From an uncultured Methanosarcinales archaeon (GTDB taxonomy: Archaea; Nanobdellota; Nanobdellia; Woesearchaeales; GW2011-AR15), in contig CAZKFC010000004.1 in assembly GCA_964552005.1 (NCBI GenBank), positions 1 to 59,542 of the forward strand: a stretch of DNA of 59,542 nt. Reading direction: 5' to 3'. Shown here piece by piece: positions 1 to 48,447 of the stretch. Position 1 is the stretch's first letter. Each line of letters opens with the position of its first letter. The notes beneath the pieces were generated by a model. It saw only the letters and a program-made list of their open reading frames with translations. It ran no database searches and was not told the origin of the DNA. Position numbers and translations under genes: made by a program.

Positions 1-96
1 ACTATAGTAGGTATGGGTATGCCTATGTGGCTGCCTGCAAGTCCCGGGATTTACACAGGCTCAAGTTTAGGTTATTATCTTGCACAAACCTTCTAA
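1..96 (+). CDS. 3' end of a probable membrane protein truncated by the window edge
   Basis: Frame 1 is open from base 1 (TIVGMGMPMWLPASPGIYTGSSLGYYLAQTF) to TAA at 94-96; convergent with the minus-strand locus. Confidence 0.45.
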   Translation, partial: TIVGMGMPMWLPASPGIYTGSSLGYYLAQTF

Positions 97-248
97 TAGG
101 TGCGCTCCGTCATACGCTTCAAATTTTTCCTTCAGAAAAACCATTCCGAGCCCTCACTATTCTTGTCTCGTGGTCTGAAAAAACACAATGGTTTTTTCAA
201 CTCAAAAGCTTTATTGACTACTTGGCATTCACTCTTGTTTTTAGCTAT

Positions 249-338
249 CTATCTTAATATATTACCAATCAAACTTAACAATAAACCAACTAAGAAAGGA
301 AGAAAAAATAAGAAAATAATAAATTTCCAAGGTTCCAC
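249..338 (-). CDS. possible 29-aa hydrophobic peptide
   Basis: GTG start overlaps the TAG of 338..883 (TAGTG); translation MEPWKFIIFLFFLPFLVGLLLSLIGNILR; below the ORF-track cutoff. Confidence 0.3.
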   Translation of the reverse strand: MEPWKFIIFLFFLPFLVGLLLSLIGNILR

Positions 339-883
339 TAATAATCACCGAAAAGAAATTCGTAAGCTTGCTGTACTTTTTGGCTGAAATGATCCCATAA
401 ATTTTTCCCTGAATTTTTTATAACTTCAACATTATCAGATGGTGTTAAATTATTTATCCCGTAAATTGTAACATGTCTAGTTACATCATAAGGAGATTCC
501 TGCATTATAAGTTCTAATGTGGCAGCACGCTTATCTGGATCTAAGTTTAAAATTGCTGTTGTCCCAACATATGCATTATCAGTTTCAGATAAAAGGTCAT
601 TGTTGACGAAATATTTTACAACATCTGCTTGTATGCTTTGTTCTTGTTCAAGGAACAATTCTACTGCATATTCTGTTTGTGTCTCAGCCGGTAATGAATG
701 ATAAAGCCTGTCTGCTAACCCTAGTCTTACATTAGTAGGATTTTTAGCATATCCTATTATTCCCCCTGTCATAATAGCAGCTGCTGTTAAAGTTATTCCT
801 GTTATGACCCATTTTTTCATATTAGATTTTGGCTGATTTTGATTTATTCTGCTAGTTCTTGACTTAATTTTGTGGACTTTCAT
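338..883 (-). CDS. membrane-anchored hypothetical protein (paralog B of 5452..5946)
   Basis: N-terminal hydrophobic helix; GGAGG RBS upstream; clearly aligns with the 164-aa protein (NPxxVRL, HSLPxETQT, ELFLEQE, RAAxLE, ESPY, NLTP, YEFL). Confidence 0.85.
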   Translation of the reverse strand: MKVHKIKSRTSRINQNQPKSNMKKWVITGITLTAAAIMTGGIIGYAKNPTNVRLGLADRLYHSLPAETQTEYAVELFLEQEQSIQADVVKYFVNNDLLSETDNAYVGTTAILNLDPDKRAATLELIMQESPYDVTRHVTIYGINNLTPSDNVEVIKNSGKNLWDHFSQKVQQAYEFLFGDY

Positions 884-975
884 TTTAATGTTTAACCTCC
901 TTAAATGACATTAATGCTGTAAAATTTAAAAGAATATCACGACAGAAACCGTAAATCTTCCGTACATAACCGAAA

Positions 976-2556
976 TCATGTTAGTAACTGAATAATCTTT
1001 TCCAATTTATCATTGTATTTTCTTTTTAAGTAAGAATTTTTATCTAAAATTTCAATCAGTCTTTCCACTAGGACTGTGTCCAACTTTGAAAATAAATCTT
1101 CATTATCTTGATAAATAGTTGATATTATCTTTATTCTATCATCCCATGTCCAAATTCTTTTATTACCATCATAATAATCGCCTGCTAATATTTTTGAGAT
1201 TGTTCCTAACAACATTTCAGATTCATTATCAGAATTTATTAAATTTGCATAATAACTTGAGATACAAGCCGAATAATTACTTTTATTGCTAAAAATCTCA
1301 TAACTCCTAATTTTTTCTTGTAACTCTTGAACTTGTTCTTCTAAAATTGAGCATCTTGTTTCAAGATCCAGTAATCTTGAATCTGTCCCTTTTTGTTTTA
1401 TCTGCTGTTGTAGATGGGTTTTTATAGCATCAGGTTTTTTTTCATTAAGTGTTAGTGCCGAGATTTCTCTTTTTAATGGTTCTTCATATAAAGGCACGTC
1501 CCTATCTTTATAACAGTCACTTAATCTTGTTCCATCATTAAATATTGCTTTATCAATTATCTGGCTGTCAAGTTCAGTTTTTTCTTCATCACTTAATTTA
1601 TGGTTGCGTTCAACAATTTTTGGCACGGGCCAATGGTCTTCTGAGGAATCACGTCTAGGGATTCTTTCAAAAAAAAGCACGTCTGATGTTGATTTCATTT
1701 GGCCATTTTCATAATAAAACCGTGGTTTTTTTACCATTACACTGTACGCGGGTTCATCATTCCTGTCATTTACTACAAAAGCAAAAAAGAATTTTAGAAG
1801 CATTTTATTTCCAATTTCAGGTATTTCTATGTTTTTTGATATACCCCATGATTCAAAATGGCTCTGTATAGTTTCTTTATCTTCTTCTTCTGAAAAATAA
1901 ACATCAAATTCGCCGTGAGAATGCCCAAAACCAACTATCCTTTTACCCTGGCTTTTCACTTCTTTAAAAGATTTCAGTTTACCCATAGGTGTAATATTAC
2001 AATGATCGCTTTTAATAACTTGTTCGTGCCCAATAATCACATCTCTTATTGTGATATCGGGTTCTCTATTTACTAAAGAATCGTCTAGTGCATACATACC
2101 AATTTCATAATGTTTTCCTTTGCCAGCATGATCAGATAATTGTGAAACCCTGGTTGCAATGTATTGTGCCTTTTGTAAAGCATAGCCTGTTATTTTTATT
2201 TGTGAGATAGTTTCTGCAGCTTGTTTATCAATATCATGATTTATGTCACGGATAATCTTTCTGAGTAATTTATCACGCTTTAATATTTGCCTCTCTTGAA
2301 ATACGTCACTATCTATATAAGAGTCTACGTCAAAATGCCCATCTTCATCAAAGAAATCTCTTAACTTTCTGTTAGTATCTGAAATTGCTGTTAAATATTC
2401 TTCTGGTTCTCTTGGATTTGATAATCTTTGTTCCAGCCTTTCTCTAACTCTATATTGAAATCTTTGTTCTTTATCCCTCTCCATTGAAGGATATTCTTCA
2501 GAATACCTTGGATGTGAAGAATCATACAGATCATAATTAAGTAGAGTTTCTAACAT
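976..2556 (-). CDS. JAB/MPN (JAMM) metallopeptidase-domain protein B with N-terminal extension and C-terminal coiled-coil/helical region
   Basis: YEIGMYAL (catalytic Glu position) and GFGHSHGEFDVYFSEEED (HxH-x7-S, then E at the usual Asp position); heptad-like LETRCSILEEQVQELQEKI. Confidence 0.8.
   Translation of the reverse strand: MLETLLNYDLYDSSHPRYSEEYPSMERDKEQRFQYRVRERLEQRLSNPREPEEYLTAISDTNRKLRDFFDEDGHFDVDSYIDSDVFQERQILKRDKLLRKIIRDINHDIDKQAAETISQIKITGYALQKAQYIATRVSQLSDHAGKGKHYEIGMYALDDSLVNREPDITIRDVIIGHEQVIKSDHCNITPMGKLKSFKEVKSQGKRIVGFGHSHGEFDVYFSEEEDKETIQSHFESWGISKNIEIPEIGNKMLLKFFFAFVVNDRNDEPAYSVMVKKPRFYYENGQMKSTSDVLFFERIPRRDSSEDHWPVPKIVERNHKLSDEEKTELDSQIIDKAIFNDGTRLSDCYKDRDVPLYEEPLKREISALTLNEKKPDAIKTHLQQQIKQKGTDSRLLDLETRCSILEEQVQELQEKIRSYEIFSNKSNYSACISSYYANLINSDNESEMLLGTISKILAGDYYDGNKRIWTWDDRIKIISTIYQDNEDLFSKLDTVLVERLIEILDKNSYLKRKYNDKLEKIIQLLT
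1914..2089. repeat. near-identical block shared with 5036..5211 (JAB cores)
   Basis: 82 bp identical (1914-1995 = 5036-5117) and 42 bp identical (2017-2058 = 5139-5180), followed by a near-identical stretch. Confidence 0.9.
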
Positions 2557-2557
2557 C

Positions 2558-4126
2558 TTAGCAGTGATGATTTTTTTGGGTGTTCCTCCTTTTCCTTAAA
2601 TAAAATCTTTGCTGGCTTAGTGGGTCATACCTAAAATCTGTTTTTAATACATCAAATGAAAACATTGTTCTTATTGATTCTCCAACCATGGCGCTTCCTA
2701 TTACCATGTTAGACATGACAACACTACCATCAGGCTGTTGAGCACAAGACATTGATATACGGGGGTATGTTGATAAATGCAGTTGACAGTCTATACAATC
2801 ACTCTTTCCGGGTTGGTAAACAGCCATCACCCCGCGCTGAGGTCCTGTGCCACCATCGATATATGTTAACCCATTATTAATAGCAAAGTTGTTAAGCCAT
2901 AACCTTGTATATTTATTGTCAACACAACCAAAAATCACGTCGTAGTCTGTTTTAGCCAATCTTTCAGGAGTTAATGTTTTTATGCCTGGATAATTTTGTC
3001 TGTCTTGCTCTGTAACACCAAAATAATGATGCCTAAATTCTTTAAAATTGGGAAAGTTAGGGTCTTTGTTCTCATTAGAATCTTGTTCCCATAGCTTCCT
3101 ATCAAATTCATAAACTTCTTCCAACCAAACTTTATCCTTCTCCAAACTTGTTTGAGCAATTTTCCCATATATGCTGGTTGCTTGAATATGCTTATCAATT
3201 TCTTTTATTCGCTCAGCTAATATGTCTGATTTTTTTTCACCAACCCTATCATACAATAATATTTGACGGTTTAGGTTGTGAGGTTCAACAATATCGTAAT
3301 CTACAATGTCAATCTTTCCAACACCTAATAATGCGAGATTTAGTGCAACGTAATTACCTATCCCGCCTGCGCCCACAATCAAAGCTCTTTTGTTTTTATA
3401 ATACACAGGAAGTTGATGCTGGTCATTATCACTTCCTCTTCTTGAATCTGATAGCAAATTATATATAAGGCTCGAATTATTGGCCATATTACTTTTATGT
3501 TCGTTTTCATATCTAAATATTGTTTTTCTAACTTCTTCACAAACCAAACCAGCAATAACTCCACTTGTAAAACTTCCTTGCGTTTGTTCTTGATATCTAT
3601 CTAGAATTAATGTTTCAAGGTCTGGTGGTTCAACATTTCTTGCGAAGTCTGTTTTTTTTTTTGGAAAATATACCGCCATTTCTCCTTGATAAGCATTAGA
3701 AGAAGCAGATATAATTGGGATGCCATAACTTACAGCATATTTTAATACAGTTTCTTTAGAAACAGCATCATTGGTAGCGTCAATAATGATCTGTGGTTGA
3801 TATGGATAAATAAAGGCTTCTACAAACTTTGAATATATCCCAATAAAATCTAAATTTGGGTTAACTAAGGAAAGGGTGTTTTCTATATGCCTTATCTTTT
3901 TATCACCTATATTTATATCGTCATGTTTAACTAAAAAATCAAGATCATCTCTTGCAATCCTTTTATTATCAATAAAACATATTTTTCCTATACCAAGACC
4001 TGCCAAACCAGTTAAAACCATCTGGGCAAGAACATCCGAGCCAACAACAGCAATAGATGTATTGTATAGCTTGCGCTGGTTTTCTTCTCCCCATACAAGT
4101 ACATTTCTGCTAGTGTGGATAGACAT
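2558..4126 (-). CDS. tandem ThiF/MoeB-domain E1-like enzyme (inactive N-terminal + active C-terminal adenylation domain)
   Basis: Domain 1: SRNVLVWG...IAVVGSDVLA (degenerate Gly loop). Domain 2: LIVGAGGIG, DYDIVEPHNLNRQ, GCVDN, CIDC, SCAQ. Start moved to the MSIHTS ATG at 4126, behind a GAGGT RBS. Confidence 0.88.
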   Translation of the reverse strand: MSIHTSRNVLVWGEENQRKLYNTSIAVVGSDVLAQMVLTGLAGLGIGKICFIDNKRIARDDLDFLVKHDDINIGDKKIRHIENTLSLVNPNLDFIGIYSKFVEAFIYPYQPQIIIDATNDAVSKETVLKYAVSYGIPIISASSNAYQGEMAVYFPKKKTDFARNVEPPDLETLILDRYQEQTQGSFTSGVIAGLVCEEVRKTIFRYENEHKSNMANNSSLIYNLLSDSRRGSDNDQHQLPVYYKNKRALIVGAGGIGNYVALNLALLGVGKIDIVDYDIVEPHNLNRQILLYDRVGEKKSDILAERIKEIDKHIQATSIYGKIAQTSLEKDKVWLEEVYEFDRKLWEQDSNENKDPNFPNFKEFRHHYFGVTEQDRQNYPGIKTLTPERLAKTDYDVIFGCVDNKYTRLWLNNFAINNGLTYIDGGTGPQRGVMAVYQPGKSDCIDCQLHLSTYPRISMSCAQQPDGSVVMSNMVIGSAMVGESIRTMFSFDVLKTDFRYDPLSQQRFYLRKRRNTQKNHHC

Positions 4127-5351
4127 GTTCAACCTCATATAATAAATTACCAATTTTCATTATGTTGGTGTATAATAAAATTCGTTTGTCTAAACTTCTT
4201 TTTTGCAACGGCTTTTTAATGTTTGAACTTTGCTTTTGCAATTCAGTAATTCTCTTGTCAAATCTTTGTTGACAAGAAGTAGTTCTGCTTGCTAGTCTTG
4301 TTGAATACTTAATCATGTCGTCATACATTTTTTCAAGGTTACTTATTTCATTTAACATCTTATTTTTTGATTTTCGCGGTTGGAATTTAGAAAATGCATG
4401 GCCGATTGATGTCATTGAATGATATAGCTGAGAAAGATACTCATATTCTTGTCTTGGTGTTAAGCCATTATTGTATTTTAAAGAAGATAACGACCTAAGA
4501 CCATTCAAAGCTGATTCTTTTATTAATTGCCGTGTATTTTCTAAAACAGATTTATAGTTATTGAAAATATTGTTTAATTTTCTTACCCTTAGAATTAGCT
4601 CTGCATCAATCTTTTCTTTATCAAGTTCTCTATGTTTTCTTGGAGGCACAATTTTATAGGTAATGCCTTCGCTGAACTGTTCAGCTCTGCCATTATGAAT
4701 ATAAGCAATAACACAATAAGGACGCTCATTTGCAGCGTTAAAAGTCATCCCATAAAAAAAAGGTATTGTCAACTGCTGTTTTTGTAACAATACAAATTTC
4801 TGATTTTGATTATATTCTTCAGAATGATCGTCGAACATTGTAGATTGAATTGTGTAAGTCTGTCCGTTTAATGTAAGTTTTAACCCGCGATTCTCACCAT
4901 CAAAATAATATGTAAGTTCATTTTCCTCTTGAGTTAAATCAATTATTTCTTCTAACTCTTTTTTTATACCCCAGTCATTAACATGGCTGAGGATTGTGTC
5001 AACATCTTCACTCGAATAGAAATTTGATATGTTCGCGTGAGAATGCCCAAAACCAACTATCCTTTTACCCTGGCTTTTCACTTCTTTAAAAGATTTCAGT
5101 TTACCCATAGGTGTAATTTCACAGTGTAAAGGTCTTACAACTTGTTCGTGCCCAATAATCACATCTCTTATTGTGATATCAGGTTGTCTATTTACTAAAG
5201 AATCGTCTAGTAGGTAGAAAGCCACTTCCAATGGTGTGCCAGCAAGTTCACACACCCTTCGAGCAATATAATTAGCTTTTTCATATGCATATGATGTTAT
5301 TTTTATTGGAGATAGTTCTTTTCTTATAGTATCTTCAATTGAATATTGCAT
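4110..5351 (-). CDS. JAB/MPN (JAMM) metallopeptidase-domain protein A with C-terminal helical region
   Basis: LEVAFYLL and GFGHSHANISNFYSSED give a canonical E...HxH-x7-S-x2-D. Confidence 0.85.
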   Translation of the reverse strand: MQYSIEDTIRKELSPIKITSYAYEKANYIARRVCELAGTPLEVAFYLLDDSLVNRQPDITIRDVIIGHEQVVRPLHCEITPMGKLKSFKEVKSQGKRIVGFGHSHANISNFYSSEDVDTILSHVNDWGIKKELEEIIDLTQEENELTYYFDGENRGLKLTLNGQTYTIQSTMFDDHSEEYNQNQKFVLLQKQQLTIPFFYGMTFNAANERPYCVIAYIHNGRAEQFSEGITYKIVPPRKHRELDKEKIDAELILRVRKLNNIFNNYKSVLENTRQLIKESALNGLRSLSSLKYNNGLTPRQEYEYLSQLYHSMTSIGHAFSKFQPRKSKNKMLNEISNLEKMYDDMIKYSTRLASRTTSCQQRFDKRITELQKQSSNIKKPLQKRSLDKRILLYTNIMKIGNLLYEVEHVYPH

Positions 5352-5451
5352 TCTAAAAAAGTATCAATAGAATTATTTTTAAAAGACTTCATGAGTTAAT
5401 TTCGTAACTTTTTCGAATAACACTAGAATATTTACGATATTCTTATAATAA

Positions 5452-5946
5452 CTATTCATTTACCAGAAATTCATATAAGCCAACAATTTTTTTAGAAAGA
5501 TATGAAAATATCTTTCCCCCAGATTTAGCAATTAGAGCAGCACAATCTTCTGGTGTTAAATTATCCATACCATCAAATACTATATATTTCTGTATCTCAT
5601 ATGGTGATTCTTCTAGTATAACCTCTAAAGCTGCGGCTCTTGTGTATGGATCAACCTTAAGCAAGGCACTGCCGCCAATGTATGCGTAATCTTCCTGCAT
5701 CAATATGCTGTTTTCAATGTAGTATAAGACCATATCTACTTGATCTTGATATTCTTGTTCAAGAAATAATTCTCCTACAACAGCTGTCTGTGTTTCTTTT
5801 GGCAACGAATGGAATAATTTATTTGCAACACTTAATCTCACACCAACAGGATTGTTTGCATATAAAATTGAAGTACCGATTAAGCTGCCCATTATAAGTA
5901 TTTTTAGACCCTTTGATAATTTATCAATTTGCATAGGAATTATCAT
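5452..5946 (-). CDS. membrane-anchored hypothetical protein (paralog A of 338..883)
   Basis: N-terminal hydrophobic helix; aligns end to end with the 181-aa protein. Confidence 0.85.
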   Translation of the reverse strand: MIIPMQIDKLSKGLKILIMGSLIGTSILYANNPVGVRLSVANKLFHSLPKETQTAVVGELFLEQEYQDQVDMVLYYIENSILMQEDYAYIGGSALLKVDPYTRAAALEVILEESPYEIQKYIVFDGMDNLTPEDCAALIAKSGGKIFSYLSKKIVGLYEFLVNE

Positions 5947-6151
5947 ATGATTAATATTTATAATATCTCACAAGAAAAAACCGAATAATTTCCGTCTTAT
6001 AATAATAAAAAGGTTTATATACTAGAAACGTATTGATTTTTATTAGTTTTACTTGGGGTGATTTGTTATTAAGTATAGTGAGATTTTGTTTAAATTTTGC
6101 GAGTCATCTTTATCTGTTTTTACGCTCATATAATTAAGGAGAGAAAAAGTT

Positions 6152-9100
6152 ATGAGGGAAAAGAGGTTTTTGCTACTTTTAGGAATATTTTTAGCTTTAG
6201 CTATATTATTCACTATCTCTCAGCCTCAACAAGACATTATTTCTACTGATAAATACAACTATACAATCAATGACACAATTACAATTAAATTAAACTATAC
6301 AGATTTTAATAATACAAAGTTAGAAATATTAAATAAACAACACACTTACAATTTCTTTAACCCTCAGCAGTTAATTAAATTTTTACCAAAAGAATATGGC
6401 TTGCATATAATACAGTTCTTTAAAAACTCTAATTTGCTTGATACAGCGCAATTTAATGTAATTAATCCAGAGCCAAAACTAGAAGCACAAGATAAAGTTA
6501 TAGAGCCAACAATTACTAAAATATTTACTGATAAAAATGAATATAACTTATCAGAGATAGTTACAATCATTATTGAGACAGAAGAAGATTTATCTTTATT
6601 TACATTAGAAATAACCAATATAAAAACTTACAAATTTTTTAATTTAAAATCTCATAACATAAAATTTTTGCCGAGCCTACCTGGTGATTATGATGTTGTT
6701 CTAAAAAAAGATAAAGATGTTATTGCAGATACTTCATTTATTGTTACAAATGCTATAGAAAAGTTTTTTATTAGTCCTAGTAAAAAACCAAACTTTAAGA
6801 TATTAAATAGAAGAAACCTTTCTCTAAAATTAAAATCATTGAAACAAACTTTACCAAACAAATTAACTGTTGAGATTGAAGATTCTCCTGTAAAAAAAAT
6901 TGAATTCACAAACTTAGCTTTAGATAATGCTACTTTAAAAATTGATAATATCAATAAAAAATTCAAAATTAACAACAAAGATATTGTTAATTCTTATGCA
7001 ATAGATCCTACTCAGTTATCATTTGACAATGCTACAGTAACAGTAACAGCAAGGGGAATAGAGTTGTGGAAATGCAAAGACTGGGACTTTAATCAGCAAT
7101 TATGCCAAGGGTCTTGGGTGAAACTACAAGATATCACTCCAGGTAAAAACTACACTTTCTTGTTAAACGCGCAAGACCCGGGCTTTGCTGAGACAGGAGT
7201 AGCCACAGTTAATACAAAGAAGCCTATCTACCATCCCTATGAAACTGTAGACATTATAATGGTAGTGCTTGATGAGCAAGGCTATTTGAGAGATGCTAAT
7301 GTCCAATTAACTGTTACAAATCCAAATAACATAACATACAATGTTCCAACTTTCAGAACAAGTAAAGGTATATATGAAAGTACTTTCTCAAACACAGCAA
7401 TAGAAGGTAATTATATCTTGTTTGTGAACGCTTCTGGAAATAATGTAAATTCATCTCTAACTTCAAATTTCTTAGTACAAAATTATTATGAATTTGATAT
7501 CTTAAGAAATACGCCAGTTACAATAGATCCTTTCAAAGGCCCATTTGAATCTAGTATTAGAATTTTCTCATATAATTATACAGGTAACTTTAACTTTACT
7601 GAGGTCCTACCTATAAATTTTACTGTTTATGAAGCAACAGGTGCTATATTAACATCTGATACTGATAATATATATTTAACATGGACCAATCTTCAGAATA
7701 ACTCAATTGTTAATTATACAGCAAATTCACCTTTAAGTACTCCATATTTATATGTACTAGGACCTTCTTTTATAGTTTATAACACGATATTTACAGAGGC
7801 AAGACCTTGGTATTTAGCTGTGGACCCGACTTATTATGGAATTCATTTTACAGGGTTTGAAGCAGATACAACAGCTCCTTGGGATGGGTGGTCTGATCCA
7901 GGAGCAGATGCTCAAAGATCAACAGTTCGAAGCTATTGTACAGACACAGCTTGTGGAGGAGGAGGAGCTGCTAGTATTGAAGTCCAGGATAATGATGCAA
8001 CTGGCTCTTACACTGCGCAGACGTTTGATTTATCAGCGCCATGTGGCGGTGTTGCCTGTGATTCTCTTACACTTTCTTTGTATGTGTATCCGAACAGTTA
8101 TGATAATGCAGATGAAGGTTTTGATATCTGGTGTGATTATGGTACAGGCAGTGCATTTGAATTAGCAGATTGGAAAGATTCTGGGACAGCCGGCAGGACA
8201 ATATGTGGTGTTGAAGCTCCTGAAAATACTTGGACAAAAGTGGAATGTGATTTAACACAATGTACTTTGGATGGGGCTGTTGAAATTAGAATTACATCAC
8301 AAGATTCTACTTCAGGTGGTAACAACGACCAAGTCTTTATTGATGGTATCAATATAACTGGTATTAGAAATATCCCGCCGAATGTCACAGCATTGGTATA
8401 TCCTGGTAATGGCAATAGTGTAAGTGAAGGAGTTGTTGACTTTAACTTTACTGTTGAAGATGTTGACAGTACTATCCAAAACTGCACATTGTATAATAAT
8501 TTTACTGGTGATTGGGAAGCTGACAGAACTATAACTTCTATATCTGAGACAGCAGTCAATAGTATTAGTGTTACTGCCCCAGCAGGTGTCTATATATGGA
8601 ATGTACTGTGTTTTGATGATGAAGGCAAAAGTGATTGGTATACAAGTAATTATACTGTGATTGTTGATTCAGCTCCAGTACTTACAAATTTCCTGATTGA
8701 ACCAACTTTAGAATCTATTACTAGGGATATTAATATCTCAATAAATGTAACTGATGATTATTCTGTCACAGTGATTGCACAAATTACTTTGCCAAACACT
8801 AGCCAATATAACTATACAATGACAGATGCTGACTCTGATGACATATATAATTTAACATTTACAGGCACATCTATAGCAGGGTTGTATAATGTTACTATTT
8901 ATGTAAATGATAGTTATGGCCATATTAATGACAGCAATAAAGGTAATTTCACAATTAATTTAGAAAATTTGTCTATAACAACAGATAAACAAAATTATGT
9001 TGCAGATGAAATTGTTTATATTTACGGTAGAGGATTTAATCCTTTTGTTAATGTTACAGTAAATATAACTGATAGTACAGGAGACCCAGCATTAGACACG

Positions 9101-12100
9101 TCAGTAATTTCAAATTCTACAGGAGGCATTAATTTAAGCTGGACAGTTCCGTCTAGTCCTGCGTTAGGTATTTATAAAATAGGGGCAAATGACACAACAG
9201 ATTATAGTTTGAGCATAAATAACACTTTTGAGGTAGTATCTGCTATAATTACAGCTGATAAGGGCAGTTATGAACAGGCAGAGATTGTTTATATTAGTGG
9301 AAGCGTCTGGGACCCTGGCTATGAGGTTACAGTTAACATTACAGATCCTAATGGTATAGAAGTTTTTGGTCCTATAAATTATACGGCAAATGCTTCTGGC
9401 AATATAAATGCAACATGGGCCCTTCCTATAAACGAATCATTAGGAAGTCATATTTTAATGGCGTATGAACCAGATAGTCCAACTAAAAAAGACGATTATG
9501 TATTTACAGTCACGGCCAGGACTGTAACAATAACAACGCAGTATCCATGGTATAAAGAATCAGAGCAGGTAAATATTACGGGATATGGTTTCAGTTACAA
9601 CAATAATGTTACTATTAACATATATAATGCAACAGGCCAGTCTATTAGTGGTTACCCAAGAGATGTTGTAAGCAACAGCACGGGAGGCATTAATGACAGC
9701 TTCACAGTAAATAATTTGGTTAGCGGCACTTATAATATAATAGCGAATGACACTTTATATCCTGCTTTAGGAGATACAACGATATTTGAAATTGTCAGAG
9801 CTAGAATTTATACAGATAAACAAACATATGACAATGGCGAGACAGTTACAATATATGGACAATATTGGGACAGACTAGTTAATGTAACTATAGATGTTAT
9901 AAATGAAACAGGATTGTCAGAGGCAGGATATCCACAAGATGTTATTACTAATAATAATGGGGAATTTATTCACCAATTAACAGCCCGTGCAATAGGGTTA
10001 TTAGCTACAGTGTTTAATGTTACTGCTGCTCAGCTTCTTGACTCAAGTGAAAATGCCTCTACTAACTACACAGTTCTAAGACAGGCTGTCATTGATACTG
10101 ATAAACCATATTATCCTATCCAGACAAATGCAAATATAACAGGACAACAGTATAGTCCGGATGATTACGTTACTTTATGGGTTAAAAGTAGGGATAACGG
10201 AGGTACAGCTTTAACCTATCCAAGAAGTATAGCAACAGATTCTCTTGGTGAGTTTAACCATTTGTTTAACACATCTAATTATTGTGGAGGTAATTATACT
10301 GTAATTGGAACTGACCAGACATATCCTTTATTATTAAATGCTACTGCCAACTTTACTATAACAAATTGGTGGGATTCTGCCTGGGAAAAAAGAAAACCTC
10401 TATCAATAATTGAACCAGACGGTGTTGCAAGAACAAATACAATTTTAGAAGTTAATATTACTGGTTTAACTGGGTTTATAAGTGATTGTGATGAACTAAG
10501 GATTATTGATTATTTGTATAATCATGACGGCATTGTTTTGGAAAGCAGTTTATATGGTGGTGACGACTCTTCTTTCTGTACAGTAAGGTTTTACGCTAAT
10601 ATAAGTGCCAATGAAATAACGTCAACACGAATTTACGCGTATTATAATAATAGCGCGGCCTCCCCTCTAAGTACTTCCATGCCGTTTAATGAAGTTATCC
10701 ATCAGGATAATGGTGAAAATGCTACTTTAAGAAATACATGGACAGACGATCCGTTTGGCACAGATACTGCTACATCAGGATGGTGGGCTTGGGACAATCC
10801 TGAATTGTATGGAGATCCTGCCCAGCCAGAAGATGATGTTTCAGATCCAGGTATTTATGCCTTATTCACTGGCCCTACAGGAGATAATACAGGCACAGGC
10901 TACCAAGGAGATGTTGACGGCGGCAACACTTCAGTAACAAGCGGAACTATAGATATATCTGGATGGCGCAGCGCAAATTTGTCTTTTTACAGATGGTATT
11001 ATAGTAATGACAACGGCGCTAATAACGATGATACCTGTGCGATGTATGCCAGTACAAATAATGGCACGACATGGCCCTTTACAATATTTGTTTTAAATGA
11101 TGATGACATTGGCGGAGATCCTGACGGTTATAACCAATGGGACCAAACAGAATTTGTCTTGGAGAATATAATTAATAATTTTACTAGTGAATTTAGATTA
11201 TTAGGATTGGGAGAAGATTTTGGAGATGGTGATATAGTAGAGTGCGGGTTTGACGAGTTTGTGATAACAGCATATGTCAGCAACATTAATGTTACTGTTG
11301 GAGCAAGTGAAGATGATTATGTCTGTCAAGATGTGGATTATAGTAAGCCAGTTGTTAAAGATCTTAATGTAAATCCAGATCCGCAGCAAATTGGTTACGC
11401 AGTAAATATTACAGTTAATGCTACTGATGATTATTATGTGGGTGTTGTAAAAGCCAGAATTACAATGCCGAATTCTACGATTTTTGAACTTGTGATGAAT
11501 GATACAGACAGTGATAATGTGTATAATGTTACATATTTTTCAACATTGAAACTAGGCTTATATAATGTTACAATACTTGCTAATGATTCTGTAAGAAATT
11601 CAAATTACACAACAAAAACTAGTTTTGAAATAGTCTTGCAAAATTTGTCTATAACAACAGATAAACAAAATTATGTTGCAGATGAAGTTGTTTATATTTA
11701 CGGTACAGGCTTTAATCCTTTTGTTAATGTTACAGTAAATATAACTGATCCAGATGAAGAATCTGCATTGGCAACGTCAGTAATTTCAAATTCTACAGGA
11801 GGCATTAATTTAACATGGACAGTACCCCCTTCACCAATCTTAGGCTTTTATATTATTAATGCCAATGACACCTCTAATTATAGTAGAAGCATTGATGATG
11901 GTTTTGAGGTAGTATCTGCTATAATTACAGCTGATAAGGGCAGTTATGAACAGGCAGAGATTGTTTATATTAGTGGAAGCGTCTGGGACCCTGGCTATGA
12001 GGTTACAGTTAACATTACAGATCCTAATGGTATAGAAGTTTTTGGTCCTATAAATTATACGGCAAATGCTTCTGGCAATATAAATGCAACATGGGCCCTT

Positions 12101-15100
12101 CCTATAAACGAATCATTAGGAAGTCATATTTTAATGGCGTATGAACCAGATAGTCCAACTAAAAAAGACGATTATGTATTTACAGTCACGGCCAGGACTG
12201 TAACAATAACAACGCAGTATCCATGGTATAAAGAATCAGAGCAGGTAAATATTACGGGATATGGTTTCAGTTACAACAATAATGTTACTATTAACATATA
12301 TAATGCAACAGGCCAGTCTATTAGTGGTTACCCAAGAGATGTTGTAAGCAACAGCACGGGAGGCATTAATGACAGCTTCACAGTAAATAATTTGGTTAGC
12401 GGCACTTATAATATAATAGCGAATGACACTTTATATCCTGCTTTAGGAGATACAACGATATTTGAAATTGTCAGAGCTAGAATTTATACAGATAAACAAA
12501 CATATGACAATGGCGAGACAGTTACAATATATGGACAATATTGGGACAGACTAGTTAATGTAACTATAGATGTTATAAATGAAACAGGATTGTCAGAGGC
12601 AGGATATCCACAAGATGTTATTACTAATAATAATGGGGAATTTATTCACCAATTAACAGCCCGTGCAATAGGGTTATTAGCTACAGTGTTTAATGTTACT
12701 GCTGCTCAGCTTCTTGACTCAAGTGAAAATGCCTCTACTAATTATACTGTTGTTAGAACAGCAATTATAAATACAGACAAAGATAATTACGTTCAGTTAG
12801 AAACTGTTAATATTACAGGTTTGTATTACACGCCTGATGATTATGTCAAAGTCTGGATTAAAAGCCGGGATAATGGCGGTACTGCTATTGACTATCCGAA
12901 ATTAATTCCAACAGATTCTTCAGGTAATTTTAATCATATATTTGATACTAACTCGTATTGTGGCGGTAATTATACAGTTATTGGTACAGATGAAACACAT
13001 CCTGTTAACTTAAATGCGTCTGCAAATTTTACATTAAGAGATTGGTGGGATTCTGCCTGGGAAAAAAGACTTCCTATATATTTAACAAATTTAGAAGCTC
13101 AAGACAGATATAATGAAAGAATATTCGTCAATGTTACAGGTTTAGCTAATAATATTAGTAGTTGTGTAGATGAAATTAGAGTTATATCAACAATTACTGG
13201 AGCAGAAGTACCAGTTAATATTGTTGGCGGAGATAACAGCAATTATTGTGAGGTTATCTTTTTAGGCAATATTACAGCATTAGCTGTAAATGAAAGCAAT
13301 TATTATGTTTATTATAATAATTCAGCGGCTTCAGACCCAGGTTATTCAGATCTTGAATTATATAGTTATGCTATTCATTTCACGGGTATAGAAGCAGATG
13401 ATACAGCACCATGGGACGGCTGGGTTTCAGGAGGAGCAGATGCATTAGAATCAAATTTATATTCTGCTGTTGACGATTCAGGTGCTTCAGGAGGTACTGA
13501 TAGTATTGAAGTCCAAGATAATGATGCAACTGGCTCTTACACTGCGCAATCTTTTGATTTATCATCAGCTTGCGCTGGTAATTCATGTGACTTCTTTAAT
13601 TTCTCAGTTTATTTATACCCGGAAAGTTATGATAATGCAGATGAAGGTTTTGATATCTGGTGTGATTATGGTACAGGAAGTGCTTATGAACTTGCAGACT
13701 GGAAAGATTCTGGTCCAATTGGTAGAACAATCTGTGGTGTTGAAGCTCCTGAAAATACTTGGACAAAAGTGGAATGTGATTTATCACCTTGTACGATTGA
13801 TAGCACAACTGAACTTAGAATTACCAGTCAGGACTCTACATCAGGTGGCAATGGTGACCAAGTTTATATTGACGGTCTAAATATTACAGGTTATAGAAGA
13901 TCTGCGTTAAATATAACAAGTTCAGTATCTAATGTTCAAGAATATTTTGCTTGTATTCCGTTTGATATTATAGAGCCAAATGTAGTAATAAACGAACCAT
14001 TGAATTATTATAACACAACAGATGTTACTCCAGAAATTAATTTTACAATTACAGATAACCAGGACACAATATTAAATTATACAATTTTTGTAGACGGTGT
14101 TTATTATGGCCAGAACGGCACTGTTAATAATAACACACCTAAATTATTAAACTTAAGCACACTTGCAGAAGGCGTACGTAATATAACAGTACAGGCTATG
14201 GACGATTTCAGGAATGCTAAAAATAATTCTATTATTATTATAGTTGATTTAACAGGACCAATAACAAATATAACTCAGCCGATTAATTTTACAAATATAA
14301 CAGGCTCTTCTTATAATTTAGCAGCAGTATCATCTGATGCCTTGACAGCAGTTGACACAGTAAGATTTTATTACAGACCAAATGATACTGCAATATGGAA
14401 TTTTGCATGTTCTGACAATAGTGAGCCATATCAATGTTCTTTGGACATATCTTTGTTGAAGGATGGTGATGCTTACCAAGTTAGAGCGTATGGTAATGAC
14501 ACTTTAGGCAATATAGGACAAAACTATACTGTATATAATATTACATTAGATAGAACAGGACCAATTGTTACAATTACAAGTCCAGTTAATTTCACAAATA
14601 TAACTTCTAATTCATACACAATACAGACAACAGCGTCTGATGCATTGTTAGAAGTTGACACTGTCTTTTTCTATTATAGAGAAAACAATACCGCAACATG
14701 GACATTCCTTGGCACAGACAGTAGTGTTCCGTATAGATGGACCTGGAACCTTACTTTGTTGAATGACGGTGATTCTTACCAAGTAAGAGCTTATGGTAAT
14801 GACAGTTTGGGAAATGTTGGTTATAATTACACAGTATATAATATAACAGTTGATAGAACACCGCCTGATATTAATAATATAAATATTACTCCTGAGCCGC
14901 AGAAAGTTGGCCTTACAATTAATATAACGGCTAACATTTCTGATAATTTTAAAACAGTTGATTATGTTGAAGCACAAATAATATTGCCAAACACTAGCCA
15001 GATTAATCTTGAGATGAGAGATGATAACTCTGATTCTATATATAATGTTACCTTTACTAATACTTTGTTAATTGGCACATATAATTTGACAATTTTTGTT

Positions 15101-18100
15101 AATGATACTTTAGGAAATTCAAATACTTCTAATTTAATAAATTTCACTATTATTTATGACGATCTTTATTTAATAACAGACGATATTAAATATGTCACAG
15201 GCGAAACTGTTTATATAACAGGAGAAGGATTTAATGCTTATGGTAATGTAACAATTAATATTTATAATGAAACAGGACAACCAGTTAATAATTTTCCTAG
15301 AGACGTAATAAGTAATAGTACAGGTGGTTTGAATGATTCATGGCTTATTCCTGGAGGACAGCCTCTTGGTATGTATACAGTAAATGCAACTGATATTACT
15401 GATTCAAGCAGGTCAATAGAAACAACATTTGAAATTGTTGCAGCTATTATAAGTACCTTACAAGAGATTTATCAACAAGCTGACATGGTTAACATAACAG
15501 GTGAGTTCTGGGATCCTAATGAAAATGTTACCATAAATATAACAGACCCTACTGGTGTTGAAGTATATGGTCCTATCAACATTACAAGTAATGCTTCTGG
15601 ATTTTTAACAGCTAATTGGTCCAGTAACTATAATTCAACTATTGGCGAATACATATTAATGGCTTACCAGCCAAGCAATCCAAACAAATATGATACACAT
15701 GTATTTAATATTACACAAAGAACTGTATATTTGCTAACAGATTATCCATGGTATAAACAAGACGACACTGTCTATATAACTGGTTATGGTTTTTCTCCTA
15801 ATATTAATGTTACTATTAACATATATAATGCAACAGGCCAGTCTATTAGTGGTTATCCAAGAGACGTAATAAGCAACAGCACGGGCGGCATTAATGACAG
15901 CTTCACTGTAAATAATTTGGTTAGCGGCACTTATACAATTAATGCAACTGATGATCTCTATAAAAACTTGAATAATATAACTACATTTGATATTGTGTTT
16001 GCAACAATAACAACAGATAAATCTGCTTATATTAATGGCGAAACCGTCTATATAACAGGTAATTACTGGACTAAAAATGTTAACATTACTATTGATATAA
16101 TTAATGAGACAGGCCAATCTATACCTAATTATCCAAAAAACGTTACCTCTTTAAATGATGGCAGTATAAGTGATTCATTGACTGCTGTGGCTATAGGACT
16201 GGGCACAACACAGTATAATATTACAGCTTTTAACCCAAACAAAGCAGAGGAAAATGCCACTGCTAACTATACAGTATCAAGAGTTGCCTTGCTAAACACA
16301 GACAAAACAGAATATGATAAGGATGAAGATATTAACATAACAGGCGAATTTTACTCTCAAAATGGGCCTGTGGAGATAATTATAAGATATCTAAATAATT
16401 CTGGATTTGGTTTTTATTATCCGAAAATAATATACAGTAATATAGATGGGGATATCCAGCATTTATTTAATACTTCATATTTATGTGAAGGCGAATATAT
16501 TATTGAAGTTAGTGATTTAACTTTCTCAAGTTTATATGCAAATACAACATTTAATGTAAGTTATTATGAAGATAATTCTACGTTGGAAAATGCTGATAAC
16601 AGTGATGCTTCCGGCGTATATAATGTGTTTGGAGGCAGTACAAGTGATACTTATTCATCAAATAATAACTGGCAATCTCTTGGAAGTATCAACTACAATT
16701 CTAATTTTACAGCATATCTTAACTATACTTTTAATATCAGTAATTTAAATGCTGATCCGTACAGAATTTATAATATAACATTTAGCGTTGAATACTGCCA
16801 TAGCGGCGGCGAATCAAGCCCGCAGTGTAATCAAAATGATCCGCATGAAGGCGAAGTATTTGGACCTCAATATATATATCTATTTAATTTTTCCAATAAC
16901 GAATGGTTTAACTACACAATATTGCCTGTTAATGATATCTCTGATAGTGAATCAATATTTGAATTTAATCTTTCTACTGGTATTCCTGACTTTGTTCAAA
17001 ATGATATTATTTATGTAAGGTATACAGTCAGCTTTAACCAAACTGGTTCTTTGGATGATCATCTTTTAATAGATTACTTTGATATGAATATTACTTATGA
17101 ATCTCAAGTTGAAAGAGCGTGTACACCTTTAACTACAAAAAGTTTAAATGTGCAGAATTATGATGACAGCTTTGTTATTATTGAGAATACTAAAATTAAT
17201 GTTTATAATTTATCAAATGCTATCATTGACACAGGTAATGGAACCTACTTTAGATATTTACCAGGTGATGAGCTAAAAGTAAAGGTTATTACACCTTTTG
17301 CAAGTGATAATCTTACATATGAAATTTTCGACTTAAACTTCTCAGGCAGTGTAAATATTACTAGCCAAGTAAATGAAAATTACAGTTATTCATTACCAAC
17401 ATTAATAACAAATGTAACACCATTAATAGCAGTAAATGACTCACAAATTAAATTTAGCAAAGCACAGTTAATAATACCAAAACGAAGCCTAGAAATAAAT
17501 ACTATTTTACATTGTATAAATTATAATTACCAAACAGCAGAATGTCTGCAGTTCGAGCTAAATGAAACAGATGATTTTGAGTATAATGAAACTAATGATT
17601 ATATTAAGTTCAATGTAACTTATTTTGATGCATTTGGCGGTGGTCCTGGAGATACTCTACCAAATTTAACAGAGATAAGGATATATAATGTAACTGGCTT
17701 AGCAAACAAACATAGTGGTGGTACTTTAATCCATTCAGGGTTAAACACAACTTTTAATTTGACAGGTAATAATATCTACAGGGTTGAATTTGCCATTACA
17801 AATGAAGGCAGGAAATGGAATATTGATGCTGAAGATTATGCGTATCATAACGGATTAAATGAAACATGGCAGATTAATAATACAGGAGATATATGGTATA
17901 CAGATGGTAGCGGTGCTAATTATACAGGTGGCATTTTTAATAATGGCAAGGTAGAATGGAATTTAAGCTTAGGAGGCACATATAGTTCAGGAGAATCAGG
18001 AACGTTTTACTATGTTGTTAATATAACTACTGATATAACAGATTGGTATTCTGTATATTTTGTTGTAAATGACACTTCTAAAACAAGTGGTAGTACAGAT

Positions 18101-19272: not shown

Positions 19273-20571
19273 ATGAAAAACAAATTAATAGCAATGCTGG
19301 CAATTTTCCTAATTAATATTTTTACAGCTATAGCTTATCCCGTGCCAATTGGAATAGACGGTGTTGTCTATGACTTAGATAATATAACAAGGGCAGATGA
19401 TACAGTAATGTTCTCTATACAAAATATTGATTCGGGTTTTTACATAGAGGATAATTTAAGATATGACGGTAGTTATTCAGTTGCCGTTAAAGGCAGCCTT
19501 GGTGATTTAATATTTATAAAAGTGTGGACACCGTATCATAACATTACTAAAAATATAACTATTGGAGGTGTATTGCATGGTTATGACTTAAATTTGAATT
19601 TAAGCGTGCCAAATAAACCACCAGTAATTAATTCAACACCAATAATAAAAGCCTATGAAGATATTTTATATGAATATGATGTCGAGGCAATTGATGACAG
19701 CAATAATTTAATTTACTCGCTGAAACAATTTCCAGATAATATGTCAATAAATAATATAACAGGCTTAATAACATGGTTGCCCTTACAAAAAGACATTGGC
19801 TTCCATAATATTTCAGTTAGAGTTACAGACGGTAAGTTTTATGACTGGCAAAATTATACTTTAGAAGTATTTGGCATAAATGATGCTCCTTTAATTATTT
19901 CAAAACCAAAAACAACAGCCAAAGTCAGCCGTTTATATTATTATGATGTTGATGCCATTGACGTTGATAATGATAGTCTTGTTTATTCATTGTTAAAGAA
20001 ACCACGACATATGTATATAAATAAAAAAAATGGTAAGATTCTTTGGTTGCCAAGAACAGCAGGCAACTATGATGTGATTGTTCAGGTAAATGATTCTAAT
20101 TTAACAGATACTCAAAATTTTAGTATTGAAGTTAAACCACATCTAAGAAGAAGATCTAGAAGAACTCACACTTCATTATTAAGGGCACCTTATGTTATAA
20201 CAGGATTAATTAATTACAGTGATAATAACCCAGTGGGTGCTGATTTTGAATATGAAATAACTAACTTGCAAACAAATGAAACCGTTACTGGAAAGACATT
20301 AGATGGGTTTAATGCCTATGCAGAAGTTATTAATGGTCAGGAAGGCGATGATTTACAGATTAATATAGGAAAGGGTAACTATAAAGAAACACATATAGCG
20401 AAGATAACAGGGGAAGTTGTAAGAGATGATATAACTTTAAACGTGACAGAAAAAGAACTCTTCACAAAATCATTATTTCCTTTTAATATATCAATAATCT
20501 CATGGTTAATTTTATTAACATTGCCTTTTGTTTTGATATTGAGGATAGCCTATCTTTATTATAAAAAATGA
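19273..20571 (+). CDS. membrane-anchored surface protein with two cadherin-like/putative Ig domains
   Basis: Signal peptide; NKPPVINSTP...YEYDVEAID and NDAPLIISKP...YYYDVDAIDVD repeats; C-terminal TM helix; starts 2 bp after the giant gene. Confidence 0.85.
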   Translation: MKNKLIAMLAIFLINIFTAIAYPVPIGIDGVVYDLDNITRADDTVMFSIQNIDSGFYIEDNLRYDGSYSVAVKGSLGDLIFIKVWTPYHNITKNITIGGVLHGYDLNLNLSVPNKPPVINSTPIIKAYEDILYEYDVEAIDDSNNLIYSLKQFPDNMSINNITGLITWLPLQKDIGFHNISVRVTDGKFYDWQNYTLEVFGINDAPLIISKPKTTAKVSRLYYYDVDAIDVDNDSLVYSLLKKPRHMYINKKNGKILWLPRTAGNYDVIVQVNDSNLTDTQNFSIEVKPHLRRRSRRTHTSLLRAPYVITGLINYSDNNPVGADFEYEITNLQTNETVTGKTLDGFNAYAEVINGQEGDDLQINIGKGNYKETHIAKITGEVVRDDITLNVTEKELFTKSLFPFNISIISWLILLTLPFVLILRIAYLYYKK

Positions 20572-26053: not shown

Positions 26054-26141
26054 TGGGCCCGCCCAGATTCGAACTGGGGATCCCCCGCGTTCTAAACAAA
26101 ATGTTAGTCAGGCGGATGTCATGCCTCTAGACCACGAGCCC
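26054..26141 (-). tRNA. tRNA-Val(GAC) with 16-nt anticodon-loop intron (26090..26105)
   Basis: Acceptor GGGCTCG/CGGGCCC, T-arm CCCAG-TTCGAAT-CTGGG, anticodon stem TCCGC/GCGGG; BHB helix CTGA/TTAG. Confidence 0.9.
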
Positions 26142-45844: not shown

Positions 45845-45957
45845 TGCGGGGGAAGGGATTTGAACCCTCGGACTCACTAAGAGACAGGATATCTTACCAA
45901 GGTACAACCAAGGCTGTCTTAAGTCCTGCGCGTTTGACCAGACTTCGCTACCCCCGC
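45845..45957 (-). tRNA. tRNA-Leu(TAA) with 27-nt intron (45891..45917)
   Basis: Acceptor GCGGGGG/CCCCCGC, long variable arm, BHB helix CTTA/TAAG. Confidence 0.92.
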
Positions 45958-48322: not shown

Positions 48323-48447
48323 TGCGACGACCGGGAGTCGAACCCGGGCCTCAACCGCTCTGCGCTGTTGGCGTGGAGCCAGTGAATCTCTTTTTTGAGA
48401 TTTTAACGCGTGGCAGGGTTGTGTCCTAGCCACTAGACCATCGTCGC
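48323..48447 (-). tRNA. tRNA-Gly(GCC) with 53-nt intron (48358..48410)
   Basis: Acceptor GCGACGA/TCGTCGC; BHB helix CTGC/GCAG; T-loop TTCGACT. Confidence 0.92.

Follow-up and report, generated by a model that had tools for sequence, protein, structure and literature searches.

A five-gene locus with an E1 enzyme but no modifier

To what kind of system does an E1-type ubiquitin-activating enzyme belong when it is encoded between two JAB peptidases and two paralogous membrane proteins, with neither a ubiquitin-like modifier (Ubl) nor an E2 conjugating enzyme next to it? This question is raised by positions 338–5946 of a 59,542-nt stretch of archaeal metagenomic DNA (GenBank contig CAZKFC010000004.1, positions 1–59,542; hereafter the window, meaning the whole stretch that was analysed). 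Five genes follow one another there on the minus strand: TMa (5946..5452), encoding a 164-aa protein of an orphan family with a single N-terminal membrane anchor; JABa (5351..4110), encoding a 413-aa JAMM/MPN+ metallopeptidase; E1 (4126..2558), encoding a 522-aa single-chain tandem E1; JABb (2556..976), encoding a second JAMM peptidase of 526 aa; and TMb (883..338), encoding a 181-aa paralogue of TMa. An earlier interpretation made from the DNA letters (the sequence-only reading) saw in this arrangement a distinct, self-contained and membrane-linked protein-modification system. We consider it likely instead that the window carries a reduced Bil-like Ubl-conjugation cassette without its modifier and its E2, and that the two membrane-protein genes belong to the surrounding genomic island.

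The layout itself was described correctly in the sequence-only reading. All five co-oriented open reading frames (ORFs) were recovered, together with the 17-bp overlap of JABa and E1 (4110–4126), the 1-bp gap between E1 and JABb (2557) and the paralogy of TMa and TMb (44% identity over 149 aa, E=3e-49). Both bounds were also found, namely a plus-strand frame that enters from the start of the window and ends with a TAA at 94–96, and a divergent gene beginning at 6152 and coding for 4372 aa. In a genome of ~32% GC the ORFs of JABa, E1 and JABb, 413–526 aa long and each with dozens of homologues, are far beyond chance expectation. A TTG at 4153 is a possible start of E1; the ATG at 4126 was chosen, which gives the N-terminus MSxxxSRN of the homologues.

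Relatives of the window E1 belong to putative Ubl–E2–JAB–E1 cassettes

The E1 has ~60 full-length homologues. We surveyed 82 related loci (designated by L numbers), gathered in part by a genome scan with 10 closer sequences, in which ORFs were called and clustered and every ORF was re-scanned with family hidden Markov models (HMMs). Four families co-occur: a small protein of ~120–190 aa, a protein of 310–575 aa (family f0), a JAB peptidase and the E1. The complete set is seen in nearly every DPANN locus with enough flanking sequence; given such flank, f0 and JAB accompany E1 almost always and the small protein is present in most loci. The DPANN hosts are Woesearchaeota, Nanoarchaeota and Aenigmatarchaeota. 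A distant branch, with E1s ~25% identical, occurs in Desulfobacterota/Syntrophobacteria, where the small protein is usually followed by f0, a protein of ~140 aa, an AAA+ ATPase resembling ClpX, JAB and E1, in that order.

The sole invariant residue of the small protein (alignment A4) is the second Gly of a C-terminal ..QEGG, after which 0–30 non-conserved residues follow. In f0 (alignment A3) one Cys is invariant, and a Y-x-H-P motif located 14 residues before it is nearly so. We regard the small protein as a putative Ubl precursor and f0 as a candidate E2-like protein, and refer to them as such below. The E1 homologues reside in conserved cassettes, and in none of the 82 cases does the neighbourhood represent an operon for thi, moa or tRNA-thiolation functions. 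Almost all encode the E2-like Cys protein, with JAB as a further neighbour, which bears out the earlier assignment of the locus to ubiquitin-like conjugation and deconjugation rather than to thi/moa functions.

The follow-up has in this way revealed a large family of Ubl–E2–JAB–E1 cassettes in DPANN archaea; its sister branch, in Desulfobacterota, has an AAA+ ATPase in addition. Within the literature searched (full texts and a review) no description of this cassette family was found, and the wider archaeal family looks undescribed. If confirmed, it would extend Bil-type conjugation to ultra-small symbiotic archaea, often in multiple copies per genome, and would add data on the origin of the eukaryote-like E1 architecture.

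The nearest relatives carry putative Ubl and E2 genes that the window lacks

The loci nearest to the window share its core. The order Ubl-E2-JABa-E1-JABb is found in L001, L010 and L002 (52%, 45% and 44% E1 identity, respectively). L089 (51%) has a Ubl fragment ending ..AGGILMYLK followed by E2, JABa and E1, and L087/L004 (47%) have E2-Ubl-E1-JABb. Orthologues of JABa are accordingly located upstream of E1 in L001, L002, L010 and L089, and orthologues of JABb downstream of it in L001, L002, L010 and L087. To judge from these sequences, the JABa-E1-JABb core and the two distinct groups of JAB orthologues are old, and in the nearest relatives a Ubl and an E2 always accompany them.

Neither gene was found in the window. 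HMMs of the Ubl and E2 families had no match in a six-frame translation of the whole 59.5 kb, a relaxed tblastn search for remnants of the two genes in window positions 1–6300 returned only noise, and 21 accessory families from related loci (AAA+ ATPase, transglutaminase and ATP-grasp included) likewise had no match in the window. The absence of Ubl and E2 is best read as a loss and not as the mark of a distinct system, since both genes are present in cis in nearly all relatives of the window E1. The membrane-bracketed order is equally restricted: the only other TM-JAB-E1-JAB-TM arrangement in a metagenome scan is a twin 8.9-kb contig with 99.9% identity (L083 = L092). Of the gene order whose conservation the sequence-only reading proposed to check, the JAB-E1-JAB part therefore stands (L001, L002, L010), whereas the five-gene order with its membrane proteins does not extend beyond this twin.

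Syntenic contigs form a natural deletion series

On three contigs of closely related origin (65–75% identity at the protein level) the window's giant surface-protein gene or its TM genes are found again. L086 (~70% aa identity) carries the giant gene in divergent orientation, a ~70-nt promoter-like segment, a Ubl-family gene, a JAB, a TMb orthologue (63% identity) and a DUF7557-ParE pair; L085 carries the giant gene, a TMa orthologue and DUF7557-ParE, with neither JAB nor E1; and in L084 the genes after a TMa orthologue are unrelated. The Ubl-family gene of L086 (3938–4366) encodes 142 aa, matches the f7 HMM with E=8e-26 and is 36% identical to the Ubl of L001. Its product ends in ..HKHSMCC in place of the ..GG and tail of the family; this could be a Ubl that is dead or else a variant with Cys at its terminus.

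The promoter-like segment of the window (5372..5441, minus strand) holds the TATA-like TTTTAAAAATA, and its positions 5374–5441 are 85% identical to positions 3842–3909 of L086. The TTTTAAAAATA segment lies about 22 nt ahead of JABa's ATG; in L086 the distance to the Ubl ATG is about 28 nt. On account of this spacing and of a TATA-like box of archaeal type, we take 5372–5441 to be the probable operon promoter, which would now be fused to JABa following deletion of Ubl (and of E2, if it was still present). The gene order of L086 shows that a Ubl-family gene stood upstream of JABa in the recent ancestor and that recombination is eroding the region.

How E1 might have been lost from L086 is indicated by its JAB (425 aa), which is chimeric: the first ~55 aligned residues are JABa-like (24/25 vs 15/25 in the clearest stretch), and the JAMM motif and all that follows it are JABb-like. 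The loss is explained by recombination of the JABa core with the JABb core, which in the window are 83% identical over 269 nt. Taken together, the window and its relatives represent a natural deletion series, from the complete cassette through Ubl/E2-less and E1-less forms to the empty site, showing decay of a cassette via recombination among its own paralogous JAB cores.

The E1 is a compact tandem enzyme

Pfam ThiF matches the E1 in three stretches (E=1.5e-63), and an alignment of 28 full-length homologues (A1) divides it into two ThiF-fold halves. In the inactive adenylation domain (~1–230) the GxGxxG motif is replaced by VGSDVLAQ (VGSDxLAQ in homologues) and the catalytic Arg, Lys and Asp are missing; searched alone, this half matches Uba4, ThiF and MoeB. 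The active adenylation domain (~244–522) has GAGGIGN, D276/D278, NLNRQ, K299, D403 and a CxxC motif, and in the C-terminal half G252, G254, G257, D276, D278, N284, R287, K299 and D403 are invariant among the 28 homologues. Eleven residues past the CxxC an invariant Cys, C461, is located on a short flexible crossover loop. In the AF2 model (pLDDT 90.7, pTM 0.93) disorder is limited to residues 458–464 around C461, between the CxxC and a helix at 470–488. A helical insert at ~320–395 is shared with the closest relatives only and contains no Cys.

When this model was compared with the PDB using Foldseek, the 50 best matches were eukaryotic Uba1, Uba6 and Uba7, spanning both halves (E 5e-24 to 1e-20, TMq 0.54–0.62, identity 11–14%). 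In a PDB profile search the active domain was again closest to Uba1-type enzymes (6e-36), with BubCD distant (E~5e-19). As modelled, the E1 is a minimal single-chain pseudo-dimer of an inactive and an active adenylation domain, in which a short crossover loop bears the putative catalytic Cys. Its pairwise identities to outgroup sequences show a divergence no greater than that of E1s from complete cassettes; relaxed selection or rapid decay of the E1 was rejected on account of these ordinary values.

Both peptidases retain a complete JAMM motif

An exact HxHx7Sx2D JAMM motif and the upstream Glu are present in both JABa and JABb, the motif of JABb, HSHGEFDVYFSEED, being intact; in an alignment of 40 family members (A6) E42, H103, H105, S113 and D116 are nearly invariant. 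In JABa the Rpn11-like core covers residues 1–~135; the protein also has a beta-rich insert, and its C-terminal half is helical. JABb has an N-terminal extension of ~105 aa, its JAB core at ~105–245 and a coiled-coil-rich C-terminal domain. The 59% identity between the two proteins is confined to the ~140-aa JAB core. Against the PDB the JAB profile matched the Rpn11-like protein of Caldiarchaeum best (6fjv, E=6e-11), then Pyrococcus JAMM1 (5ld9), followed by BRCC36, CSN5 and Rpn11; AMSH was also matched.

At the nucleotide level the cores (window 4950–5211 vs 1825–2089) are 83% identical over 269 nt, and the remainder of the two genes is unalignable. This pattern suggests gene conversion between the JABa and JABb cores. 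Searches with family profiles, one of the checks proposed alongside the sequence-only reading, recognised the five proteins unevenly: the ThiF match of E1 was strong, those of the JABs to Pfam Prok-JAB stayed sub-threshold (E 0.005 and 0.02), and the membrane proteins had no match.

The membrane proteins appear to be island neighbours

TMa and TMb each have one N-terminal hydrophobic segment and match nothing in Pfam, NCBIfam or PADLOC. Their family is small, with 5 close homologues among 5.8 billion clusters and, by exhaustive profile search, 7 clusters in 1.8 billion representatives. The AF2 model obtained for a TM protein was unusable (pLDDT 44). In TMb eight Lys/Arg residues stand ahead of the hydrophobic segment, and the positive-inside rule, applied to this basic N-terminus, predicts a location outside the cell for the C-terminal domain. 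The C-termini of the family vary and have no conserved Gly (..FLVNE, ..FLFGDY, ..FFFGIR, ..FLFRDY). The possibility that TMa and TMb are disguised Ubls or E2s was also considered and rejected: when the Ubl, E2-like, JAB and accessory families were compared by hhalign, no probability exceeded 0.3%, and the family databases had no match.

Homologues of the TM proteins occur without E1 or JAB nearby in L084, L085, L088 and L091. Repeatedly, a TM-family gene is followed by genes for a 79-aa protein and a toxin-like protein. In L088 (618–1358) and L091 (4251–4972), where the TM proteins are distant family members, these are a 79-aa protein and an Mrr_cat nuclease; in L085 (1258–1746) and L086 (6482–6976) they are DUF7557 and ParE. 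Promoter-like spacers precede both TMa and TMb. The one between JABb and TMb (884..975, minus strand) contains a TATA-like box, TTCTTTTAAATTTTA, and a GGAGG 8 nt ahead of the TMb ATG, which probably serve TMb itself as promoter and ribosome-binding site. Identity of the spacer to its counterpart in L086 is 89%, compared with ~72% for the flanking coding sequence, a degree of conservation that suggests regulatory functions going beyond those of a plain promoter.

Because the family occurs without E1 or JAB and its genes have promoter-like spacers of their own, we judge TMa and TMb to be lineage-specific neighbours in the island, tied to the giant surface-protein gene and to toxin-antitoxin and Mrr modules, and to lie outside the cassette. 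The claim of a distinct, self-contained membrane-linked system is not upheld, as relatives carry Ubl and E2 in cis and the TM family occurs independently.

A scheme for the complete cassettes and the readings that compete with it

We suggest that in complete cassettes a JAMM peptidase would trim the variable tail of the ~140-aa Ubl precursor, exposing a C-terminal Gly-Gly. The active C-terminal adenylation domain of E1 would adenylate this terminus, and the enzyme would take the Ubl as a thioester on the crossover-loop Cys (C461 in the window). From there the Ubl would move to the invariant Cys of the large E2-like protein, which would pass it on to targets, and a JAMM peptidase could undo the modification, a scheme that follows the logic of BilABCD. 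This account builds on observed domain content and catalytic motifs, on the conserved operon, on the lack of Ubl and E2 in the window and on the deletion series among syntenic contigs; the biochemical steps are inferred in it, as are the promoter assignments and the membrane topology. In the window organism the Ubl and E2 genes would have been deleted and the promoter-like segment joined straight to JABa; with both genes gone, the window locus alone could not conjugate. It may be a relic of recent date, left in an island of fast turnover, or it may rely on a Ubl and an E2 encoded elsewhere in the genome.

Several observations weigh against a reduced cassette. The identities of the putative Ubl precursor and the E2-like protein rest on motifs and operon position: in profile searches of Pfam, NCBIfam, PADLOC and the PDB neither family had a sequence match, and hhalign of f0 with three human E2s placed its HP...C on the HPN...C of UBE2D2, with a weak score (P=0.019). 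JABa, E1 and JABb are full-length and have kept all conserved catalytic residues, which together with the ordinary divergence of E1 makes a long-dead relic unlikely. With a contig of just 59.5 kb, it is also possible that Ubl and E2 lie elsewhere in the genome. Finally, the adjacency of JABb and TMb and their spacer persist in L086 despite the loss of E1, leaving room for a functional link between JAB and TMb.

Some of these points are shared by the alternative that the window cassette works in trans, the matching Ubl and E2, or a complete cassette paralogous to it, being located on another contig of the genome. We regard this as possible but doubtful. The three enzymes are intact, the evolutionary rate of E1 is normal and the promoter-like segment has been kept directly upstream of JABa; moreover, some DPANN metagenome-assembled genomes (MAGs) hold 2–4 cassettes, so that paralogous Ubl/E2 sets can coexist. 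However, in all examined MAGs with several cassettes every E1 is accompanied in cis by an E2 of its own, which suggests cognate pairing, and no split system was seen. In addition, the sister lineage represented by L086 is without E1 and its Ubl is without Gly-Gly, indicating decay within the clade.

Two further readings give the membrane proteins a part in the system. In the first, which we consider improbable, JABa-E1-JABb has been kept as an E2-independent, membrane-linked derivative of the cassette, where E1 would activate an unlinked protein or TMb and the Rpn11-like peptidases would exert control at the membrane. In the second, the TM-JAB-E1-JAB-TM order is a self-contained membrane-linked module in which E1 and the JABs act on or with the TM paralogues and no Ubl or E2 is needed. 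The co-oriented and tightly spaced genes and the TMb-JABb adjacency kept in L086 fit such a module, and L001 and L002 carry other membrane-anchored proteins (f28, f56) downstream of JABb. Yet the arrangement is confined to this strain, TM homologues elsewhere have no E1 or JAB, the variable TM C-termini offer no conserved Gly, and the TM profiles bear no similarity to Ubl, E2 or accessory families. The soluble TM domain is, furthermore, predicted to be extracellular, away from the cytoplasmic ATP-dependent E1, and the TM spacers resemble separate promoters, all of which makes the self-contained module very unlikely.

The remaining proposal, an E1 of the ThiF/MoeB/UbaA type that activates a sulfur carrier or SAMP for cofactor synthesis or tRNA thiolation next to desampylase-like JABs, is largely refuted: NCBIfam ThiF, MoeB and UbaA do match the active domain and the desampylase model matches both JABs weakly (E~0.003), but all scores are far under their cut-offs (UbaA 87.9 vs 450), the E1 is a fused inactive-active tandem without a rhodanese domain where ThiF, MoeB and UbaA are homodimeric, and the 82 neighbourhoods offer none of the contexts expected of that class.

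Comparison with known conjugation systems

The system that the reduced cassette and its complete relatives most resemble is BilABCD, a Ubl-conjugation system that serves bacteria in defence against phages (Type I/II Bil; '6d'/'6c' among the operon types of Iyer et al. 2006). BilABCD consists of a Ubl, an E2, a JAB/JAMM peptidase and a tandem E1, and its Ubl has a Gly followed by a short tail (PMC10557695, PMC11601596). The DPANN relatives have the same gene set in the same usual order (Ubl, E2, JAB, E1), a putative Ubl precursor with a conserved Gly and a short non-conserved tail that would need processing by JAB, no E3, and a patchy, island-like distribution. In the window itself the JAB/JAMM peptidase (BilC) is found twice and the tandem E1 architecture is present, whereas a BilA-type Ubl and a BilB-type E2 were not found in the 59.5 kb.

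There are differences from BilABCD as well. The crossover loop of the Bil E1 holds a helical CYS domain of ~80 aa, whereas in the window C461 is on a short loop, and the insert at 320–395 of the window E1 is at another position than this CYS domain and has no Cys. In the Bil E2 the order is Cys...His, whereas the E2-like proteins of the relatives are large (400–550 aa) and have the canonical HP...Cys. The closest relatives of the window have two distinct JABs, their hosts are DPANN archaea, and an AAA+ ATPase is frequent in the wider cassette family. No Bil chain was among the PDB matches listed for the E1 (best 60 of 80), E2-like and Ubl profiles, and among PADLOC models the Cap2 E1 regions alone gave a match. 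BilABCD protects its host via conjugation of the Ubl to a virion protein, whereas what can be set beside this here is gene context only, namely a hypervariable island and, in relatives, ParDE and Mrr neighbours. A viral origin was considered and discarded, as IMG/VR viral contigs hold no homologue.

Eukaryotic Uba1, Uba6 and Uba7 share the core of inactive and active adenylation domains with the window E1 and are its best structural and active-domain profile matches. The window E1 is much shorter (522 vs ~1000 aa) and has neither the FCCH and SCCH cysteine domains nor the ubiquitin-fold domain; it can be seen as a minimal version of a Uba1-type E1 rather than as a member of that class. The ubiquitin operons of Caldiarchaeum subterraneum and Asgard archaea (Ub, E1-like, E2-like, RING E3, Rpn11-like) are also archaeal, provide the best structure match for the JABs (Rpn11-like 6fjv) and have a JAMM-processed Ubl precursor; they differ in their small canonical E2s, sequence-recognisable ubiquitin and RING E3. 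Asgard loci in our set (L050, L072) additionally have short single-domain E1s (254–296 aa), not tandem ones.

Type II CBASS resembles the window in combining an E1-type adenylation domain (Cap2) and a JAB peptidase (Cap3) in one locus. In a PADLOC run, also envisaged earlier, the 'E1-E2' (Cap2) models did match the active domain of E1 (E down to 3e-20), over only ~80–180 residues; no CD-NTase was found, neither JAB matched Cap3, and the window E1 is not an E1-E2 fusion. Assignment to type II CBASS fails, as only the adenylation region of Cap2 is matched. Bub (6E/DUF6527) was rejected because Bub E1 and E2 have no catalytic Cys and use oxyester chemistry, whereas the window E1 and the relatives' E2-like proteins have an invariant Cys; DUF6527 itself had no match in the window or in the relatives' proteins searched with Pfam. 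The ThiF/MoeB/UbaA sulfur-carrier class was set aside too, for its domain organisation, NCBIfam scores and genomic context as given above.

Host and genomic surroundings

The window very probably derives from a DPANN archaeon, as had been proposed, in view of its tRNA introns, its TFB gene and the E1 relatives in Woesearchaeota, Nanoarchaeota and Nanobdellota. Two tRNA genes on the minus strand (45845–45957 and 48323–48447) were matched by Rfam and not reported by ARAGORN, and their lengths of 113 and 125 nt imply introns. ARAGORN alone reported an 88-nt tRNA-Val at 26054–26141 that is missing from the Rfam listing. AlaRS and an H+-pyrophosphatase are also encoded in the window.

The divergent giant gene (6152–19270, plus strand) codes for a predicted surface protein of 4372 aa with dense N-x-S/T sequons and large internal duplications. 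Its DNA repeats are spaced 2676 and 5529 nt, and a stretch of >250 aa is repeated identically in the translation. The next gene (19273–20571) encodes He_PIG Ig-like domains, and orthologues of the giant gene border the same island in L085 and L086.

Copy number and accessory genes in the cassette family

Several DPANN MAGs contain 2–4 separate cassettes, such as DATDYQ01 (L011, L016, L017, L021), CAZGQD01 (L008, L015), the pair L027 and L031, and the pair L014 and L019; this is unusual given such small genomes. In the Desulfobacterota cassettes (L051–L081), and also in L014, L017, L024 and L047, the gene for the ClpX/HslU-like AAA+ ATPase (367 aa; Pfam AAA_2 8e-19, ClpB_D2-small) and that for its ~140-aa partner frequently stand between the E2-like gene and JAB. 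A combination of Ubl, E1, E2, Rpn11-like JAB and AAA+ unfoldase, if each is what it appears to be, is reminiscent of a minimal ubiquitin-unfoldase pathway.

Upstream of the nearest complete cassettes are genes for a transglutaminase-core protein, a ~350-aa protein of no known family and a RimK-like ATP-grasp enzyme (L001 1–2343, L010 2094–4813, L087 3958–4623). Downstream there is a gene for a helical protein of 630–1050 aa with a C-terminal membrane segment. These four may be accessory or target genes of the cassettes.

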